A DNA stretch of 47,650 nucleotides from IMG/VR virus record IMGVR_UViG_2541047798_000009. One strand, given 5' to 3'. Below the pieces are notes generated by a model. That model was not told the DNA's origin. It did no database searches and saw only the letters and a program-made list of their open reading frames with translations. The DNA comes from a virus. Taxonomy: Duplodnaviria; Heunggongvirae; Uroviricota; Caudoviricetes. Shown here piece after piece: positions 1,477 through 44,590 of this stretch. Each line of letters begins with the position of its first letter. Positions within the stretch are counted from its first letter, which is position 1. The position numbers and the translations under genes were made by a program.

Positions 1477-3533
1477 TCCACAACCTCCCCAAGCTGCGCA
1501 TCTGTTAGCTCTTTATGCCAGAGACGAAAATTCCTCACATGCCCAAATAAATGGCGTAATCCTGCTGTAGTTTGTCCACCAATGCGAATGGTTGCTGTAC
1601 TCCGGATATATTCCCATGTGGTTTTTGTTTCGCTGGATATACGCCCGTTACTTACTGCACATGTAGACTGATCTGACTTTACACGCATCCCCATAACCAT
1701 TTTTTTCAACGATGCGTTTTCGTTAACACGCCTATTTGATCCACCAATATCGCAATAAGGAAATCCGTCTGGCCCATCTGCCGAAGATCCGAAGCCAAGA
1801 ATAATAGCCGCTCCGGTTTGATGACCGCCGGTATCAAAAACACGTGGCGCTGCATTTGGCGTTTTATACCAGTTCTTATGTACCTCACAAAGAACCGTAA
1901 AAGGAAGATTATAAAGATTATTCTTAATCGGAACTGTAACCATATCGCTTGCGCGCGTCGCCGCCGTCGTTCCTGATATAATAAAAGATGATACACACGA
2001 ACCATCCTCAACCTGAGGGGTGGCCAGATAAATATAGTCACCAGATTCAACGACACCACCTTTTTTTGGTGCGTATTGTATTGCAGAGGTTATGTAAGTT
2101 TCTTTACTTGCTTGAATCGTTGCCTCTACAAAAATCCAGCCCGTAGCTTCATCTTTGTTAACTCGTGCGGTGAGCCTGTCGGCAGCTACACCGGTGATTT
2201 CAACCAATAAAGACCGCGTATTAACAATGGTATATCCAAGATTAGATGAAGCGCTGCCATCGAAGGCTTCAAACCTGATCCTTAACAGGAGTTCCAAATC
2301 CGTTTTAAATCTGCACGATGTCGTCACACACTTATTATCGCCTGATACATCGACAGCCCCCGAGGTTGAAACTACTGCCATATTAAGGGTTGTACTTTGC
2401 CCAATTAATGATTCATTACAAACAAACTTTCCATAAGTAAAACCAAAACTATCAGTTCCAACCTCAGCGACATTCATATTTGCAGATTTACCCCAAGAAG
2501 CTGGAGTTGCTGAATTCAACATGTAGTTGGTTCGCTGACCTTCAATCAATAAACCTTCTTTTTCAAATCGTGGCTCATTAATTTCCGCCGTTTTCAGTTC
2601 GCCAGATTTGTTGATATATGTTGCCGTTGATGCGCGACTGAAATTAACCTGTTTATCACTGGCAACCTGAACCACATTATCACCAATCTTCACTTTTTTA
2701 TAACCCGGAGAATAGCCCGTAATCATATCCAGCGAATCATTAAAGGGTATCCACACATCCGGCAGCGGCTGTAAAACATATCTGTACGGCTCTGCTGTCT
2801 GGTTTGCGTATTCTCTGGCAGCATCTTCACTTGCTTTTGCTGCCGTCTGGCTTGCTGCCGATGCTTTCGCCGAGTTCGCCGCCGCTGTTTCGCTCACCTT
2901 TGCGTTGGCTTCACTGTCTTTGGCATTCGTCTCACTGGTTTTCGCTGCCGTCTGGCTGGATTTTGCGTTTTTTTCGCTGGCCTTTGTGGCTGTCTCGCTA
3001 TTTTTCGCGCTGGTTTCTGATTTTTTGGCTGCTGTCGCGGAGTTTGCCGATGCAGTCTGCGAGGCCGCTGCCGCCTGTGCGCTGTTAGCTGCATTCGTTT
3101 CTGAGGTTTTCGCCGCATTCTTCGATGAGGCTGCTGCCGTTTCGGATTTCTTTGCCGCCGCTGCACTCTGTGATGACGCTCCGGCATGACGTGCCACTTC
3201 ATTCACCATCAGCTCAAAACGGCGCAGTGCCTCCGGACGAACATCATCCTCCGTCATGGCGCCGAGAAAATCATTCAGCGTACCTGGTCTGGAACCTTCA
3301 TAGACGGTAATGGTCCCGGCATGTGAAGGCGGAAAATCTTCAACCAGCAGGGTGACGCTGTACTGGCCATACTCAACATCCATGCTGTAACGCCCGGCTT
3401 CATCCGGATTTTCAGAGGCCACCGTGTTCACCACCACCGTGCTGCTGGTCCGTCTGGCCTTCAGCACAATGGTGCAGTTCTGTACTGGTTTTCCTGTGCC
3501 ATCTTTAAGCACGCCAGAAATTTTTACTGTCAT
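1473..3533 (-). CDS. stf: Side tail fibre protein (686 aa) with Ala/Ser/Thr-rich repeat tract and C-terminal LamG-like lectin domain
   Basis: N-terminus MTVKISGVLKDGTGKPVQNCTIVLKARRTSS... resembles the lambda Stf N-terminal domain; long SETAAASSKNAAKTSETNA... repeats; C-terminal ...LRHLFGHVRNFRLWHKELTDAQLGEV typical of a LamG jelly-roll. Confidence 0.85.
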   Translation of the reverse strand: MTVKISGVLKDGTGKPVQNCTIVLKARRTSSTVVVNTVASENPDEAGRYSMDVEYGQYSVTLLVEDFPPSHAGTITVYEGSRPGTLNDFLGAMTEDDVRPEALRRFELMVNEVARHAGASSQSAAAAKKSETAAASSKNAAKTSETNAANSAQAAAASQTASANSATAAKKSETSAKNSETATKASEKNAKSSQTAAKTSETNAKDSEANAKVSETAAANSAKASAASQTAAKASEDAAREYANQTAEPYRYVLQPLPDVWIPFNDSLDMITGYSPGYKKVKIGDNVVQVASDKQVNFSRASTATYINKSGELKTAEINEPRFEKEGLLIEGQRTNYMLNSATPASWGKSANMNVAEVGTDSFGFTYGKFVCNESLIGQSTTLNMAVVSTSGAVDVSGDNKCVTTSCRFKTDLELLLRIRFEAFDGSASSNLGYTIVNTRSLLVEITGVAADRLTARVNKDEATGWIFVEATIQASKETYITSAIQYAPKKGGVVESGDYIYLATPQVEDGSCVSSFIISGTTAATRASDMVTVPIKNNLYNLPFTVLCEVHKNWYKTPNAAPRVFDTGGHQTGAAIILGFGSSADGPDGFPYCDIGGSNRRVNENASLKKMVMGMRVKSDQSTCAVSNGRISSETKTTWEYIRSTATIRIGGQTTAGLRHLFGHVRNFRLWHKELTDAQLGEVVE

Positions 3534-39344: not shown

Positions 39345-39416
39345 TTATTAGCAACGTGCTAACATTAGCACATGAGATCACAATACAGCAATACGCTGTA
39401 AAGCATTTAGCTAACA
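39345..39416. promoter_or_regulatory. O_R-like operator region with TTAGCA/TGCTAA half-sites
   Basis: 15-bp perfect palindrome TTAGCAacgTGCTAA (39348-39362), a TTAGCA half-site (39365-39370) and palindrome TTAGCTAA (39407-39414) between the divergent regulators. Confidence 0.55.
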
Positions 39417-39917: not shown

Positions 39918-39989
39918 TTAGCATTTTGCTATTGTCAAGAATAACGCATAGCGCTACATTCACCTCAGCAAGTAAAAACAAGTGAGGTG
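39918..39989 (+). promoter_or_regulatory. P_L-like promoter with operator palindrome TAGCAtttTGCTA and an RBS-sequestering hairpin
   Basis: Palindrome at 39919-39931 matching the O_R motif; -35 TTGTCA (39932-39937), -10 TACATT (39955-39960); inverted repeat CACCTCA (39961-39967) / TGAGGTG (39983-39989) whose right arm contains the GAGGTG Shine-Dalgarno. Confidence 0.45.
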
Positions 39990-39995
39990 AATGTA

Positions 39996-40439
39996 ATGTT
40001 AAATGATAAACATGACTCTTATTCCGTAAACTCTCTGTTGATTTGTGCTCAAGCGGCACTATTAGGCGGTACCGCTTCAAACCATGACGTCATCAACCTC
40101 TTAGATGTTGCACAAGACATCATCTCTTCAACTATGAATTCCTTTACAGATAGTAGCGCTCCCGGCGCTAATGTTGATTTATTTACCAAAGAAGTTAGCG
40201 CTAGTAATTCCCCAGCATTATCTTTCGGTCAACGTATTCTCCAAGCGCGTAAATCAGCAAGTCTTCAACAACATCATATTGCCAGCGGTGCTGGAGTGAC
40301 TGTTCAGGCTGTTTCGTTATGGGAAAATGACTCAGCAATTCCTACTTGCGACAAAATTATCCCATTGGCAAATCTTCTTGGCTGCGATCCAATGTGGTTA
40401 CTGACTGGTGCTTATAAACAAAATCAGGAGGAAGCATAA
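39996..40439 (+). CDS. Hypothetical protein with C-terminal XRE-type HTH (147 aa) at the N-gene position
   Basis: C-terminal SFGQRILQARKSASLQQHHIASGAGVTVQAVSLWENDSAIPTCDKIIPLANLLGCDPMWLL is an HTH_XRE pattern; ATG 6 nt after GAGGTG. Confidence 0.55.
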   Translation: MLNDKHDSYSVNSLLICAQAALLGGTASNHDVINLLDVAQDIISSTMNSFTDSSAPGANVDLFTKEVSASNSPALSFGQRILQARKSASLQQHHIASGAGVTVQAVSLWENDSAIPTCDKIIPLANLLGCDPMWLLTGAYKQNQEEA

Positions 40440-40440
40440 G

Positions 40441-40632
40441 ATGAAAATGTTCAAAGGCCTCACCAACGAACCGGAAACAGCTTTTCATCACATTGCCGTA
40501 CTGCTTGAAGCGGGGTTAATCATTTCGGCTTCCGGTGATGAAGAATGTGATGAACTTTCGGATGATATCTTTTTACTGGCACAACAATACGCCAGAAGCG
40601 CATGCGATGCATTTAAGGAGCAAAGAACATGA
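40441..40632 (+). CDS. Hypothetical small acidic protein (63 aa)
   Basis: ATG 2 nt after the previous stop, AGGAGG upstream. Confidence 0.45.
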   Translation: MKMFKGLTNEPETAFHHIAVLLEAGLIISASGDEECDELSDDIFLLAQQYARSACDAFKEQRT

Positions 40633-40820
40633 TAACTCCATTAAATATTCTTGAGGAAGTGGCAGCACAAATAAAAGAGAATACATCCATGCTTGAATTT
40701 ATATTTAAGAATTCGCCTGATTCAGGAGAGACAGACGATTATTTATGTTGCCTCATTCGCTCCATGAATAAAACCTGTGAAATGGCTTACGCGTATATCG
40801 ACACACTGCGCAACGAATAA
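40629..40820 (+). CDS. Hypothetical small protein (63 aa)
   Basis: Start overlaps the previous stop by 4 nt (ATGA). Confidence 0.45.
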   Translation: MITPLNILEEVAAQIKENTSMLEFIFKNSPDSGETDDYLCCLIRSMNKTCEMAYAYIDTLRNE

Positions 40821-41004
40821 AGAAAACTCAATAAACAATCACCCATAAAAACATAACGGCCTCTGGTCGGGAATTTCCACAACCTGAAAATGGTGGTGAT
40901 GCATGAAAAACAGAAGTGCTTATAAAACCGCATTATTAATGGCTAATGCAGGATACTGGTCAGTTGCAATACTGTTTCTCAGAAAAGCATACGGGAAATA
41001 ACAA

Positions 41005-41364
41005 ATGACACATGAACCCATTAATACATATCGTCGCCGTATAGCTGTTGCGGCACTCCATCGAATAAAACGTAAAACAGGTGGTAATCTGCTTATTGTT
41101 GACCTTCCGGATGGGAACATTACGACCATAGAAATAACTGAACAGTTTATAAACCAGTTGCTGTTACGCTTCGAAGGTATTACCCGTGGTGAATTGGGCC
41201 GGGTGGAGGGTGAAACCGAAATCCACACTGCATACCAGAATGCTATCGGGATTAATCAACATACTGAATACCTGACTGAAACCGGAAAGTTAATTATAGA
41301 CAACCTTTTTCAAGAGGTTATTGATTACGCGAAAGAAAAATATATCAGCGGAGGAATTAACTGA
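41005..41364 (+). CDS. Hypothetical protein (119 aa)
   Basis: ORF in the early-left operon; coupled to the next ORF. Confidence 0.45.
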   Translation: MTHEPINTYRRRIAVAALHRIKRKTGGNLLIVDLPDGNITTIEITEQFINQLLLRFEGITRGELGRVEGETEIHTAYQNAIGINQHTEYLTETGKLIIDNLFQEVIDYAKEKYISGGIN

Positions 41365-41579
41365 TGGCTAATTTATCCCCTGTATCTGTTGTGCACGAAA
41401 AAGTGCAGATCGTTATGACAATTGAAAATGGCCAAGTCACAGGTGTCTGCAAAGTCCGCGATGGCGAGCTGATTGCCAGCATGGATACATTCATACGGCT
41501 GGCAGAAAGAGCGGGGTATCAGATAACAGCACCTGCTCAGGAGGAAACCGGTGGCATTAACAGCAACACGCATTCCTGA
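41364..41579 (+). CDS. Hypothetical protein (71 aa)
   Basis: Start overlaps the previous stop (ATGA/TGATG-type coupling). Confidence 0.45.
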   Translation: MANLSPVSVVHEKVQIVMTIENGQVTGVCKVRDGELIASMDTFIRLAERAGYQITAPAQEETGGINSNTHS

Positions 41580-41765
41580 GCGGATCCACCGGCAGGCATT
41601 GCAGGTCCTGTTGTTGTACCGATGCCGACGGATATTTCCGCATCGGATACAGCGCACCGGATATCTCAGTCTGAAGGTTAACCGTCGCTGGCGGCTGTTA
41701 TCGAAAGACGACGGCCGGAACTGGGAAGTAATGAGTCATGAACGTTATTCGGGAGAAATAAAGAA

Positions 41766-42158
41766 ATGATCGACAACCGCACCGCCAGCGCCATTGACCA
41801 GGCATTACAGAAACATGATACACCCGTCGGCCCGTTATTTTTTGTAACACGCCACGGAAGAACAAAAAAATGCCTCACTCGAAAAACGGCAATTCGTTAC
41901 CTGGCCTTCTTTATGACCACCCGCGCTTTTGAACGTTCAGGATTCCGACAACGCTATCCTGACAAGCGTTTTATCTTCAACAGGAATGAGATATGGAAAC
42001 GTGGAGAATCAACCACAGAGTATACCCGCGCACACCAGCGAACAATCAGACGACTGCGCAGACTCATCGCCAGGAAACAGTATACAGAAAAATGGTTCAG
42101 AAAATATGACACATGGAGCGCCGGATATTACGAACTGATGGCAACAAAACCATTCTGA
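41766..42158 (+). CDS. Hypothetical strongly basic protein (130 aa)
   Basis: Arg/Lys-rich ORF (…TIRRLRRLIARKQYTEKWFRKY…) suggesting nucleic-acid binding; no domain recognised. Confidence 0.45.
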   Translation: MIDNRTASAIDQALQKHDTPVGPLFFVTRHGRTKKCLTRKTAIRYLAFFMTTRAFERSGFRQRYPDKRFIFNRNEIWKRGESTTEYTRAHQRTIRRLRRLIARKQYTEKWFRKYDTWSAGYYELMATKPF

Positions 42159-42218
42159 CGTAAACGAAATTAACCATGACGCAATTAAATAAGGCAAGCC
42201 GAATACATCAGGAGGACC

Positions 42219-42407
42219 ATGAACATTTATTTCAGAATAGTTATATCACTGGCAATTATCACATGTATTTACGGATTAATCGTTCCGGCCCTCATATCAA
42301 TGAAGGATACGGTAGCAGTGATTTCTGGCTTTGCTCTGGCGTGTCTGACCCCGCCCTGCATTTATGCCATTTATAAGGGTCTTTCTTTTTCTAAGGATAA
42401 AAGATGA
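42219..42407 (+). CDS. Small two-helix membrane protein (62 aa)
   Basis: Two hydrophobic helices (IVISLAIITCIYGLIVPALI and VISGFALACLTPPCIYAIY); its stop overlaps the SPFH gene start by 4 nt. Confidence 0.5.
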   Translation: MNIYFRIVISLAIITCIYGLIVPALISMKDTVAVISGFALACLTPPCIYAIYKGLSFSKDKR

Positions 42408-43231
42408 AAAAATTACTTTTTGCTTTAGCCCTTGTTCTGCCGACCATTGGCCTTGTCGGTTGCGATCGCGTTGAGCCTGGTAATGTGGGCATCAAAGTAA
42501 ACAAACTGGGCGACGATAAAGGCGTCGGTGAAGTGGTCGGTGTTGGGCGCTACTGGACGGGATGGAACACTGAGGTTTACATCTTCCCGACCTTTAAGCA
42601 GATGAAGACCTACGATGATCCATTCAGTTTCCAGATGAGTGACGGTACAACCATCGGCTATCACATCGGCGTGGCCTACAAAGTTGATCCATCCAAAGTT
42701 ACCACAGTCTTTCAGACCTACCGCAAAGGCGTGGACGACATTACCGACACCGACCTGCGCCAGAAGATAGCCGACGCACTCAACCGACTGGCCAGCAAAA
42801 TGACCACCGACAAATTTATCGACGGCGGCAAGTCTGAGCTGCTGGATGCAGCTCTTAAAGACATTCAGGAAGAAATGACGCCCATCGGTATTCAGGTAAT
42901 GAGCCTCTCATATGTGGGTAAGCCGGAGTACCCGCCTACTGTTATCGACAGCATTAATGCCAAAGTCACGGCGAACCAGAAAACCCTGCAACGCGAGCAG
43001 GAAGTAAAACAGCGCGAAGCGGAAGCCAACATGTTGCGCGCGGAAGCTGCCGGACAGGCAGATGCGATTCGCACAAAAGCCCAGGCCGAAGCCGATGCTA
43101 TTCGTTTACGCGGTGAAGCTCTGCGCCAGAACCCCGGTGTTATGGAGCTGGAAGCCATCAACAAGTGGAACGGTACACTGCCGCAATACATGACCAGCGG
43201 TGCCAACACACCATTTATTCAGGTTAAGTAA
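42404..43231 (+). CDS. SPFH/band-7 (HflC/prohibitin-like) lipoprotein (275 aa)
   Basis: Lipobox LVGC after the signal peptide; SPFH-like core and an Ala/Glu/Arg/Gln-rich coiled-coil tail (…QREAEANMLRAEAAGQADAIRTKAQAEADAIRLRGEA…). Confidence 0.65.
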   Translation: MKKLLFALALVLPTIGLVGCDRVEPGNVGIKVNKLGDDKGVGEVVGVGRYWTGWNTEVYIFPTFKQMKTYDDPFSFQMSDGTTIGYHIGVAYKVDPSKVTTVFQTYRKGVDDITDTDLRQKIADALNRLASKMTTDKFIDGGKSELLDAALKDIQEEMTPIGIQVMSLSYVGKPEYPPTVIDSINAKVTANQKTLQREQEVKQREAEANMLRAEAAGQADAIRTKAQAEADAIRLRGEALRQNPGVMELEAINKWNGTLPQYMTSGANTPFIQVK

Positions 43232-43274
43232 TACATATGCCCGGTATTACACGTCGGGCTGTCTGGAGATAAAA

Positions 43275-44024
43275 ATGAATATTGTAACCATCAACAACAA
43301 ACAGTTTCCGGTAATCGAATATCGCGGTCAGCGTGTTGTGACATTTGCAATAATTGATGACGTCCACCAGCGCCCGGAAGGTACCGCCCGTGCTGCGTTT
43401 AACCGCAACCGTTCTCACTTTATCGAAGGGGTGGATTTTCTTGAAATGACTGCGGACGTAATACGTACGGAGTCACTTTCTGATGCCTTTGCCGCGCGAA
43501 CTGCCAAAGGGATCATTCTTTTCGAGTCTGGTTACCTGATGTTGACGAAGCCTTTTAACGATACTCTTGCATGGCAGGTTCAGCGCGAACTGGTTAACAG
43601 CTATTTCCGAACTCACGCGCCGCTGACGGAAATGGAGATGATCGCTGCAATGGCCGCCGATGCCGTTCGCCAGCAGAAGCGCCTGAGTCATGTTGAAGAG
43701 AAGATCGAAACAGTCACCAAAGCTGTGGAGAACATCAAACGCGGCACAATGCGCACCGGATATGTCGGTTACCGCCAGGTGGTAGCCAAAAGCGGAATGA
43801 GTGACGCCAAGTGCCGGAATCTGGTCAACGCCTACCACATCCCTACCGACACGCACGAATTTATGACTCCGGACGGTCTGTTGTCTCGCAGGGCTATCGT
43901 CGAGCTTGAGACATTTATGGCGGCATTCCACCAAATGATGTCAGAGGCTGAACCACGCGGCACACGCTGGTATCACCCGAAGATGGGGCTTTTCCAGGTA
44001 ATCGGATGGGAGGATAAAGCATGA
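43275..44024 (+). CDS. ORF6N-domain protein (putative antirepressor, 249 aa)
   Basis: N-terminal FPVIEYRGQRVVTFAIIDDVHQRPEGTARAAFNRNRSHFIEGVDF fits the ORF6N/AntA-type domain found in phage antirepressors. Confidence 0.55.
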   Translation: MNIVTINNKQFPVIEYRGQRVVTFAIIDDVHQRPEGTARAAFNRNRSHFIEGVDFLEMTADVIRTESLSDAFAARTAKGIILFESGYLMLTKPFNDTLAWQVQRELVNSYFRTHAPLTEMEMIAAMAADAVRQQKRLSHVEEKIETVTKAVENIKRGTMRTGYVGYRQVVAKSGMSDAKCRNLVNAYHIPTDTHEFMTPDGLLSRRAIVELETFMAAFHQMMSEAEPRGTRWYHPKMGLFQVIGWEDKA

Positions 44025-44590
44025 TCATCCAGTCAAAACTTATTCGCGCCGCTCTGGTGTGCGCTGCTAAAAACGACGTTCGTTATTACCTGAACGGTCT
44101 TCACATCACGCCAAAACATATTGAGGCAACCAATGGTTCCGTGGCACTGCGCATGACTCACGGCATCCGGACGAAGAAAAACATCATTGTCCAGTTCGAA
44201 GGTGGCGTCCCGGCCAAAGCCGAAACGACAGAGCTGATTTTTAGTAAAGAGCCGATCGCTGTTCATCGCGACCAGTTTCAGCGCCGACTGTCCATTACCG
44301 GCATTAAATTGGTGGACGGTTGTTTTCCGGATTTGGAACGCATCATTCCGAAAAAATTTGACCTCTGTACACACCCGGTGATCCAGGCGGGTTACCTGAG
44401 TTATCCAGAGAAGATGTTTGGTCGTGAGCGTAAATTTATTCCCGTCCAGTTACGTCCCTCCGGTGACGGGCAAGCGGTCAGAATTCAGTTTGATTCCATC
44501 ATCAACTCAATGTATGGCAATCCTGAATTTGTTGTGATGCCTTGTCGTGATCATGGCGATTTCAACGTGGCTCAGGAGCATCCGGAATGA
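44021..44590 (+). CDS. Hypothetical protein (189 aa)
   Basis: ORF coupled (4-nt overlap) to the antirepressor-like gene; no confident domain. Confidence 0.45.
   Translation: MIIQSKLIRAALVCAAKNDVRYYLNGLHITPKHIEATNGSVALRMTHGIRTKKNIIVQFEGGVPAKAETTELIFSKEPIAVHRDQFQRRLSITGIKLVDGCFPDLERIIPKKFDLCTHPVIQAGYLSYPEKMFGRERKFIPVQLRPSGDGQAVRIQFDSIINSMYGNPEFVVMPCRDHGDFNVAQEHPE

Follow-up and report, generated by a model that had tools for sequence, protein, structure and literature searches.

An overlooked RelE/ParE-fold gene in a lambdoid Escherichia coli prophage as a candidate induction-coupled effector

IMG/VR virus record IMGVR_UViG_2541047798_000009 (Duplodnaviria; Heunggongvirae; Uroviricota; Caudoviricetes) comprises 47,650 nucleotides (nt), and "the window" here means that whole stretch. 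We analysed a cassette of small early genes at positions 41005 to 42158, which an earlier reading of the letters (the original prediction) had described as a coupled pair of genes for 119 and 71 amino acids (aa) followed by one for a strongly basic 130-aa protein. The central finding is a gene that this description lacks, ParE72, which encodes 72 aa, overlaps both of its neighbors and is predicted to adopt a minimal RelE/ParE (BECR) fold. Our preferred reading, to which we give a probability of about 40%, is that ParE72 is an induction-coupled RelE/HigB-like effector tempered by an acidic partner translated just upstream of it. From the sequence a toxin module is plausible, although it does not have the usual design of a toxin-antitoxin system.

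ParE72 is a conserved gene that several annotations have missed

The gene and its translation signal were located as follows.

ParE72: 41551 to 41769, + strand; GTG start to TGA stop; 72 aa, isoelectric point (pI) 11.3, Pfam PF24732
Shine-Dalgarno sequence AGGAGG: 41539 to 41544, + strand; 6 nt 5' of the ParE72 GTG, within the coding sequence of the 71-aa protein (p71)

ParE72 overlaps the p71 gene by 29 nt and the gene for the 130-aa protein (p130) by 4 nt (ATGA). Its product matched Pfam family PF24732 (ParE_like) with an E-value of 3.3e-17 and 62.7 bits (cut-off 24.4) over profile positions 2-65 of 67; the same family was matched by all 29 aligned relatives, and the PGAP annotation names the protein 'ParE family toxin-like protein'. 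Unique homologous coding sequences (CDSs) from related loci were intact in 96 of 96 cases, with lengths of 72-74 aa (one of 79), and most carried purine-rich GGAG/GAGG motifs 5' of the start. In the 119-, 71- and 130-aa genes, substitutions at third codon positions were about twice as common as at first or second positions, and ParE72 too has a third-position excess. The Pfam match, the 96 intact CDSs, this third-position excess and the confidence of the structure model given below together identify ParE72 as a real gene.

The family is widespread. A large-database search with ParE72 returned 90 clusters, mostly of 72-73 aa, spanning Escherichia, Citrobacter, Klebsiella, Enterobacter, Edwardsiella and Yersinia. 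Relatives were identified in 67 deposited phages, in 572 stretches of IMG/VR, in the backbones of integrative and conjugative elements (ICEs) and in P4-like elements. In phage phi467 (L002 6746-6946) and several other deposited phages, the homologue is present where the record holds no feature or only overlapping neighbors, and elsewhere in phage records homologues are labelled 'mRNA interferase' or 'HigB-like'. Overlapping genes with GTG starts, such as ParE72, thus escape visual inspection and have escaped the annotation of several deposited phages.

The predicted fold and conserved residues resemble RelE/HigB toxins

The AlphaFold model of ParE72 (predicted local distance difference test, pLDDT, 93.9) consists of a strand, a helix at residues 10-24, three strands and a C-terminal helix at residues 63-71. 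Its compact alpha/beta arrangement, with an N-terminal helix on a 3-4-stranded antiparallel sheet, is that of the RelE/ParE (BECR) fold, and by this model ParE72 is a minimal protein of that fold. Like HigB of E. coli K-12 (PDB 5IFG/6KML), YoeB, RelE and YafQ, it is a very basic small protein with conserved Arg residues on the central strand, but it is about 20-30% shorter than the RelE/HigB toxins and has one N-terminal helix instead of two. ParE72 also differs from them in having no HigA-, RelB-, YefM- or DinJ-type antitoxin adjoining it, and searches gave no sequence-level match to classical toxin Pfam families or to PDB sequences.

Residues P9, G37, L41, R46, W47, R48, L50, S51, G55, W58 and H63 were invariant in the ParE72 alignment, and Y66 was nearly so. 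The sole sequence echo in known toxins lies at the end of the last strand, where the His/Tyr motif of ParE72 (WEVMSHERY) resembles REVMTHKEY of E. coli HigB. In YoeB, the catalytic residues are Arg65, His83 and Tyr84; the Arg-x-Arg strand and His...Tyr end of ParE72 resemble this YoeB/HigB catalytic layout, and we infer the equivalence of the residues from that resemblance.

The conserved Arg46/Arg48 strand and the C-terminal His63/Tyr66 motif lead us to favor a ribosome-dependent mRNA endonuclease of the RelE/HigB/YoeB type as the more probable activity of ParE72, over a gyrase poison of the ParE type. The latter would leave the rest of our explanation unchanged and would agree with the Pfam and PGAP names and with the presence of a C-terminal helix after the last strand. 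We nevertheless consider it quite improbable, as the Arg-x-Arg strand and His...Tyr terminus point toward YoeB/HigB and as the ParE family PF05016 matched neither ParE72 nor any of its 29 relatives at E <=10. A recent survey of BECR toxins recognizes 13 families, and PF24732 is not among them (Gerdes 2025). Our literature searches with PF24732 and with WP accessions found no paper mentioning either.

ParE72 is strictly preceded by the acidic protein p119

Four further open reading frames (ORFs) accompany ParE72 in the cassette.

sORF32: 40903 to 41001, + strand; unannotated 32-aa basic, hydrophobic ORF MKNRSAYKTALLMANAGYWSVAILFLRKAYGK, pI 10.4, read from the sequence
p119: 41005 to 41364, + strand; 119 aa, acidic (pI 5.8), orphan fold, PHROG 1737 (function unknown)
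p71: 41364 to 41579, + strand; 71 aa, acidic (pI 5.1), PHROG 340; ATGA overlap with p119, last 29 nt overlapping the ParE72 start
p130: 41766 to 42158, + strand; 130 aa, pI 11.0, 30 Lys and Arg residues, PHROG 1886; ATGA-coupled to the ParE72 stop

Judged by its overlaps and spacing, the cassette is one translationally coupled, mosaic unit of five ORFs in the order sORF32, p119, p71, ParE72 and p130. The three ORFs of the original prediction exist as it described them, by their coordinates, by PGAP annotation in identical E. coli genomes and by their third-codon-position excess of substitutions, and its coupling of the 119- and 71-aa genes stands through their ATGA overlap; the unit of a coupled pair plus a basic protein does not, as two of the five coupled ORFs (ParE72 and the 32-aa ORF) had been overlooked. 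The unit shows a charge contrast between the acidic p119 and p71 and the basic ParE72.

Comparison of related loci revealed a p119-family ORF immediately 5' of ParE72 (at least 50% identity) in 103/103 cases (23/23 from genomes, 80/80 from IMG/VR), and likewise in 17/17 deposited phages with a ParE72 at least 58% identical. The adjacency persisted even at 25% p119 identity, in Erwinia and Pantoea, which lack an intervening p71 and have p119 coupled to ParE72 by ATGA. By contrast, 24 of 79 loci anchored on p119 lacked ParE72 and carried a 167-aa protein or p130 directly after p119. ParE72 therefore implies p119 but not the reverse, an asymmetry to be expected of an antitoxin-toxin pair. p119 is fused in frame to ParE72 in Pseudocitrobacter faecalis DSM 27453 (L009 3623-4222, a 199-aa ORF) and in one further locus (L184), and p71 is so fused in three proteins (P0010, P0017 and P0024); any of these fusions could be sequencing errors. 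Mean distances made ParE72 the most conserved of the three proteins compared (0.23, against 0.30 for p130 and 0.42 for p119).

Some loci have ParE72 cleanly deleted. As a separate observation, in four IMG/VR prophages (L174, L179, L185 and L186, at about 2380-3000) an HNH/AP2-type homing-endonuclease-like ORF replaces ParE72 while keeping its first ten codons (MALTAIRIPE), with p119 and p130 retained.

The other two proteins were far less regular companions. Among the 80 IMG/VR ParE72 loci, p71 was present in 65 and absent in 15; six loci had an in-frame stop in p71 with ParE72 intact, and p71 occurs in phiP27 and Shiga toxin (Stx) phages that have neither p119 nor ParE72. Similarly, p130 was present in 74 of the 80, has other genes in its place elsewhere, and in some loci directly follows p119 where ParE72 is missing. 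From this distribution we read p71 and p130 as exchangeable accessories. We also considered each as a dedicated antitoxin and rejected both, because loci with an intact ParE72 can do without either of them and because p130 matches ParE72 in basicity. The 119/71 pair as a toxin-antitoxin unit was likewise rejected, since both proteins are acidic and non-toxin-like and p71 is optional, broken in six loci and found alone in phiP27 and Stx phages. The earlier guess that coupled genes here encode a toxin-antitoxin system draws support only from the overlooked RelE/ParE-fold protein.

p119 is instead the candidate partner or neutralizer of ParE72. In the proposed mechanism, the acidic protein translated just before ParE72 (always p119, plus p71 where present) would bind ParE72 and temper it, and since the upstream ORF stops either where ParE72 starts or 29 nt into the gene, ParE72 would be translated in sub-stoichiometric amounts relative to its partner. 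The reading of ParE72 as an effector draws on the predicted fold, the Arg/His/Tyr pattern, the acid/base pairing, the gene overlaps, the asymmetric co-occurrence, the fusions and the conservation of ParE72.

The cassette probably belongs to a repressor-controlled early-left operon

The left part of the window is E. coli chromosome (ruvB to yecD), and the rest is a ~40-kb lambdoid prophage inserted at yecD/yecE, with a P27-type terminase and with xis-int at the right edge of the window. The cassette lies on the + strand, 3' of a cI-like repressor gene and 5' of a pair encoding a small membrane protein and an SPFH lipoprotein. Three features mark the regulatory region.

Operator-like palindrome TTAGCATTTTGCTAT: 39918 to 39932, + strand; overlaps the -35 hexamer of the promoter-like site
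Sigma-70-like promoter TTGTCA-17-TACATT: 39932 to 39960, + strand; from a promoter scan, just after the repressor gene
Operator-like palindrome, second copy: 39348 to 39362, + strand; in the cro/cI intergenic region

The palindrome TTAGCA-N3-TGCTAA has exactly two copies in the 47.6-kb window, with 0.11 expected by chance, and the two sites probably represent an OR and OL arrangement with the pL promoter of the early-left operon. The cassette starts about 1 kb 3' of this pL-like promoter. A consensus scan, which is a weak test, found no sigma-70-like site in the 184-nt gap before the cassette (40821-41004), and the only promoter-like site on the + strand within the cassette lies inside p119 (41005-41034, 9/12 matches). 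The cassette thus probably lies inside the repressor-controlled early-left (pL-type) operon of this phiP27-like prophage. The operator-flanked pL-like promoter upstream and the absence of a promoter-like site in the gap (consensus scans only) suggest that the cassette is transcribed with this operon, so that it is probably shut off in lysogens and switched on by induction. Under our reading, pL would fire on induction or infection, and only then would ParE72 be made as a growth-inhibiting effector. Directly 3' of the pL-like promoter, a 34-nt inverted repeat (39934-39967/39983-40016; 71% complementary, 15-nt spacer) spans the GTG start (39987) of the first operon gene in the ORF list, and might form an RNA structure or contain additional operators.

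This context bears on whether the cassette is a classical type II toxin-antitoxin, addiction or exclusion module, which would be expressed constitutively in the lysogen from its own autoregulated promoter and would stabilize the prophage or abort a superinfecting phage. The RelE/ParE fold of ParE72, its acidic upstream partner with gene overlap and the asymmetric co-occurrence would all be expected of such a module, and the paaR2-paaA2-parE2 operon offers the precedent of a ParE-type system within a lambdoid prophage (PMC8630535). The regulatory layout argues otherwise, with an operator-overlapped promoter about 1 kb upstream in place of one in the gap, so that by the (weak) consensus scan the cassette lacks the own promoter typical of type II systems. 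Autoregulation would also need a DNA-binding domain, and none was found in p119 by Pfam or fold searches or in p71 by Pfam; neither partner belongs to a type II antitoxin class (ribbon-helix-helix, helix-turn-helix (HTH), AbrB or Phd/YefM). In addition, p71 is dispensable, family members in ICE backbones and in phage Sortsne have no recognizable antitoxin, and the ten proteins encoded from 40441 to 44590 gave no match in PADLOC-DB 2.0 at E <=0.01. We therefore regard a classical module as improbable, and the operator-controlled position, the upstream gap without a promoter-like site and the lack of PADLOC matches likewise disfavor the earlier suggestion of exclusion cargo, or a role in defence, at least as a function expressed in the lysogen.

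PF24732 relatives form part of the backbone of other mobile elements

Beyond lambdoid phages, PF24732 members are more distant, reaching up to ~50% identity in deposited phages and at most 42% in ICEs and P4-like elements. In ICEs of the SPI-7/SGI4/PFGI-1 type and related plasmids, relatives with 31-42% identity are syntenic backbone genes within the order ParB, DUF2857, PF24732 gene, STY4528-family gene and PFL_4669. Records of such loci (L288-L290, from plasmids pPant4, pSGI4 and pEB102, and L028-L039) annotate the PF24732 gene, next to the STY4528-family 'replication' gene, as an 82-aa hypothetical protein. P4-like elements carry the gene between those for an Rv2179c-like exoribonuclease and a Toprim primase, and in Serratia phage OS31 a relative follows a ParB-like gene. 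Genes 5' of the PF24732 gene in phages Sortsne and ECML-606-1 were considered as p119 relatives and proved unrelated. The ICE and P4 members share with ParE72 its family, its length and an invariant RWRLLS...W.[VL]M[ST]H..Y core (31-42% identity), but unlike ParE72 they have no p119, p71 or p130 and occupy a conserved position in the element backbone rather than in a mosaic phage operon.

A broader form of our reading would make PF24732 a distinct, minimal (~72 aa) class of BECR toxins wired into the activation-induced early or replication operons of lambdoid phages, P4-like satellites and SPI-7-type ICEs, with neutralization by the novel-fold p119 in the lambdoid lineage; we hold this wider claim to be rather unlikely.

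Evidence weighing against an effector-partner module

Several observations count against our preferred reading and in part favor an explanation with no functional module at all, in which unrelated early genes stand side by side by chance through mosaicism and ParE72 is non-toxic, a RelE-fold protein that might serve mobile elements as an RNA-, ribosome- or DNA-binding regulator close to their replication and early genes. Where p119 precedes the 167-aa protein or p130 directly, it would have a role independent of ParE72, and the strict p119-ParE72 adjacency could be mere conserved synteny. Mirror-tree correlations among p119, ParE72 and p130 were alike for all pairs (0.64-0.69), so that the distances do not single out p119 and ParE72. 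Each component also occurs in other combinations (p71 alone, p119 with other genes, p130 without ParE72, ParE72 deleted or HNH-replaced), and in ICEs and P4-like elements the family belongs to the syntenic backbone. Beside the distant family members in ICEs, P4-like elements and other phages we found no recognizable antitoxin or p119, an argument that the family need not be a neutralized toxin. Pfam and fold searches found no DNA-binding or known antitoxin domain in p119, and its compact fold has no structural relative. The alignment of ParE72 with E. coli HigB by hhalign covered only the 10-residue motif (E 0.016 in a single comparison, probability 2.8%), and literature searches found no toxicity, binding or RNase results for any PF24732 member.

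An absence of any module is harder to reconcile with the finding that none of 103 loci had ParE72 (at least 50% identity) without p119, although both flanks are heavily mosaic, with the natural in-frame fusions of ParE72 to p119 and to p71, and with an invariant Arg/His/Tyr pattern typical of catalytic BECR RNases. We therefore judge independent, non-toxic early genes to be on the unlikely side, albeit a serious alternative. Should ParE72 prove inert, the cassette would be an ordinary mosaic set of orphan early genes.

Neighboring proteins and the missing recombination genes

Searches of p119, p71 and p130 against Pfam, NCBIfam, PADLOC and PDB, as single sequences and as profiles, gave no match to any known recombination or regulatory family or to any other entry, and the three fell only in the function-unknown PHROGs 1737, 340 and 1886. 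The original prediction had called none of the genes recognizable; this holds for its three ORFs, and fails for the cluster through the PF24732 match of ParE72. Structure modelling and fold searches gave p119 a confident fold without known relative. p71, a member of the large PHROG 340, gave a weak match to the C-terminal portion of an anti-repressor PHROG and showed no similarity to the neighboring ORF6N anti-repressor-like protein; its alignment proved too variable for scanning a sequence collection. A profile search with p130 across 1.84 billion representatives returned only 55 clusters at 50% identity, all of small (~130-aa) proteins; the ten clusters taken through Pfam all stayed below its cut-offs, and p130 showed no HTH motif. 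The stop of sORF32 lies 3 nt 5' of the p119 start. An ORF ending in LFLRKAYG[KR] stands at the equivalent place in 99 of 179 related loci, with divergence in its other amino acids, and the product may be a leader peptide or a small membrane peptide.

The cassette had been described as replacing the usual recombination module. Neither the PGAP annotation, which covers the whole prophage, nor scans of the operon ORFs with Pfam and PHROG gave an exo/bet/gam, recET or erf gene, so that the absence of these genes is borne out, whereas 'replacing' describes mosaic gene content and not a demonstrated substitution. A novel recombination function standing in for Red/RecET, for example with p130 as a DNA-annealing protein, would fit the early-left position in a prophage with no recognizable recombinase and the very basic character of p130. 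We consider this highly improbable: the cassette proteins had no sequence link, and the modelled p119 and ParE72 no fold link, to single-strand annealing proteins, exonucleases or Gam, the p130 family is tiny and confined to ~130-aa proteins, and the phiP27/Stx relatives examined show no annotated recombinase in the same stretch, so that nothing need have been replaced.

The 1.6 kb around the cassette is 100% identical in strains VR50 and FDAARGOS_1283. Of 5426 complete E. coli genomes, 250 carry the region, and in 107 its coverage is >=80%. Next to the repressor gene, the HTH gene that follows it (40029-40439) is only ~45% identical to its FDAARGOS_1283 counterpart (L001 5230-5640), whereas the cassette 600 nt downstream is 100% identical between the two, and this comparison places a mosaic (heteroimmune) boundary between ~40440 and ~40630. 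Downstream of the cassette (42219-43231, + strand), an ATGA overlap couples the SPFH/Band-7 lipoprotein gene to that of a 62-aa membrane protein (PHROG 1130) before it. Their phiP27 counterparts are 84% identical for the membrane protein and 98% for the SPFH protein (gene L05), and in phiP27 the pair is preceded by a p71-like gene and a 212-aa protein in place of ParE72 and p130. Farther along, a 189-aa early-left protein (p189; 44021-44590, + strand) carries the PHROG label 'RusA-like resolvase', which was not borne out. The only other similarity of p189 was a weak one, with the DnaN beta sliding clamp in domain II (PDB E ~0.002-0.003, residues 5-115 against 136-254; TIGR00663, E 5e-4), and it may be a single clamp-domain-like phage protein.

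Relation to known systems and significance

Two kinds of phage-borne toxin gene invite comparison. Lambda Kil, KilR of Rac and DicB of Qin are products of small toxic genes in repressor-controlled pL operons. The genes stay off in lysogens and, once derepressed, check the growth of the host, with no dedicated antitoxin required; their products target cell division (FtsZ/MinC) and are not of the BECR fold. The cassette resembles them in position and expression logic only, with no sequence or fold relation.

The other is paaR2-paaA2-parE2, a three-component ParE toxin-antitoxin system that E. coli O157:H7 carries in its lambdoid cryptic prophage CP-933P (PMC8630535). Like the cassette, it places a RelE/ParE-superfamily gene in a multi-gene lambdoid operon with a small acidic upstream partner that has no DNA-binding domain, and its regulation is tied into the phage immunity circuit (PMC8630535). 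It differs in lying at the cI/rex position and being expressed with the repressor (PMC8630535), whereas the cassette lies 3' of a pL-like promoter. PaaA2 and PaaR2 share no Pfam family or other similarity with p71, p119 or p130, no HTH or PaaA-like match was found in the cassette, and its third, basic protein (p130) lies downstream and, unlike PaaR2, shows no HTH.

The PF24732 group is thus an uncharacterized, minimal RelE/ParE-fold family with orphan partners. If active, ParE72 would be the smallest RelE/ParE-type effector, in a family that the 2025 survey of BECR toxins does not include. If our preferred reading is right, the prophage would carry a toxin tied to its induction and not to the upkeep of lysogeny, together with a partner of novel fold. 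Were the broader claim of a distinct class also true, PF24732 and its partners would represent a new toxin-partner family whose logic is the shut-off of host translation upon activation of the element, and not addiction.

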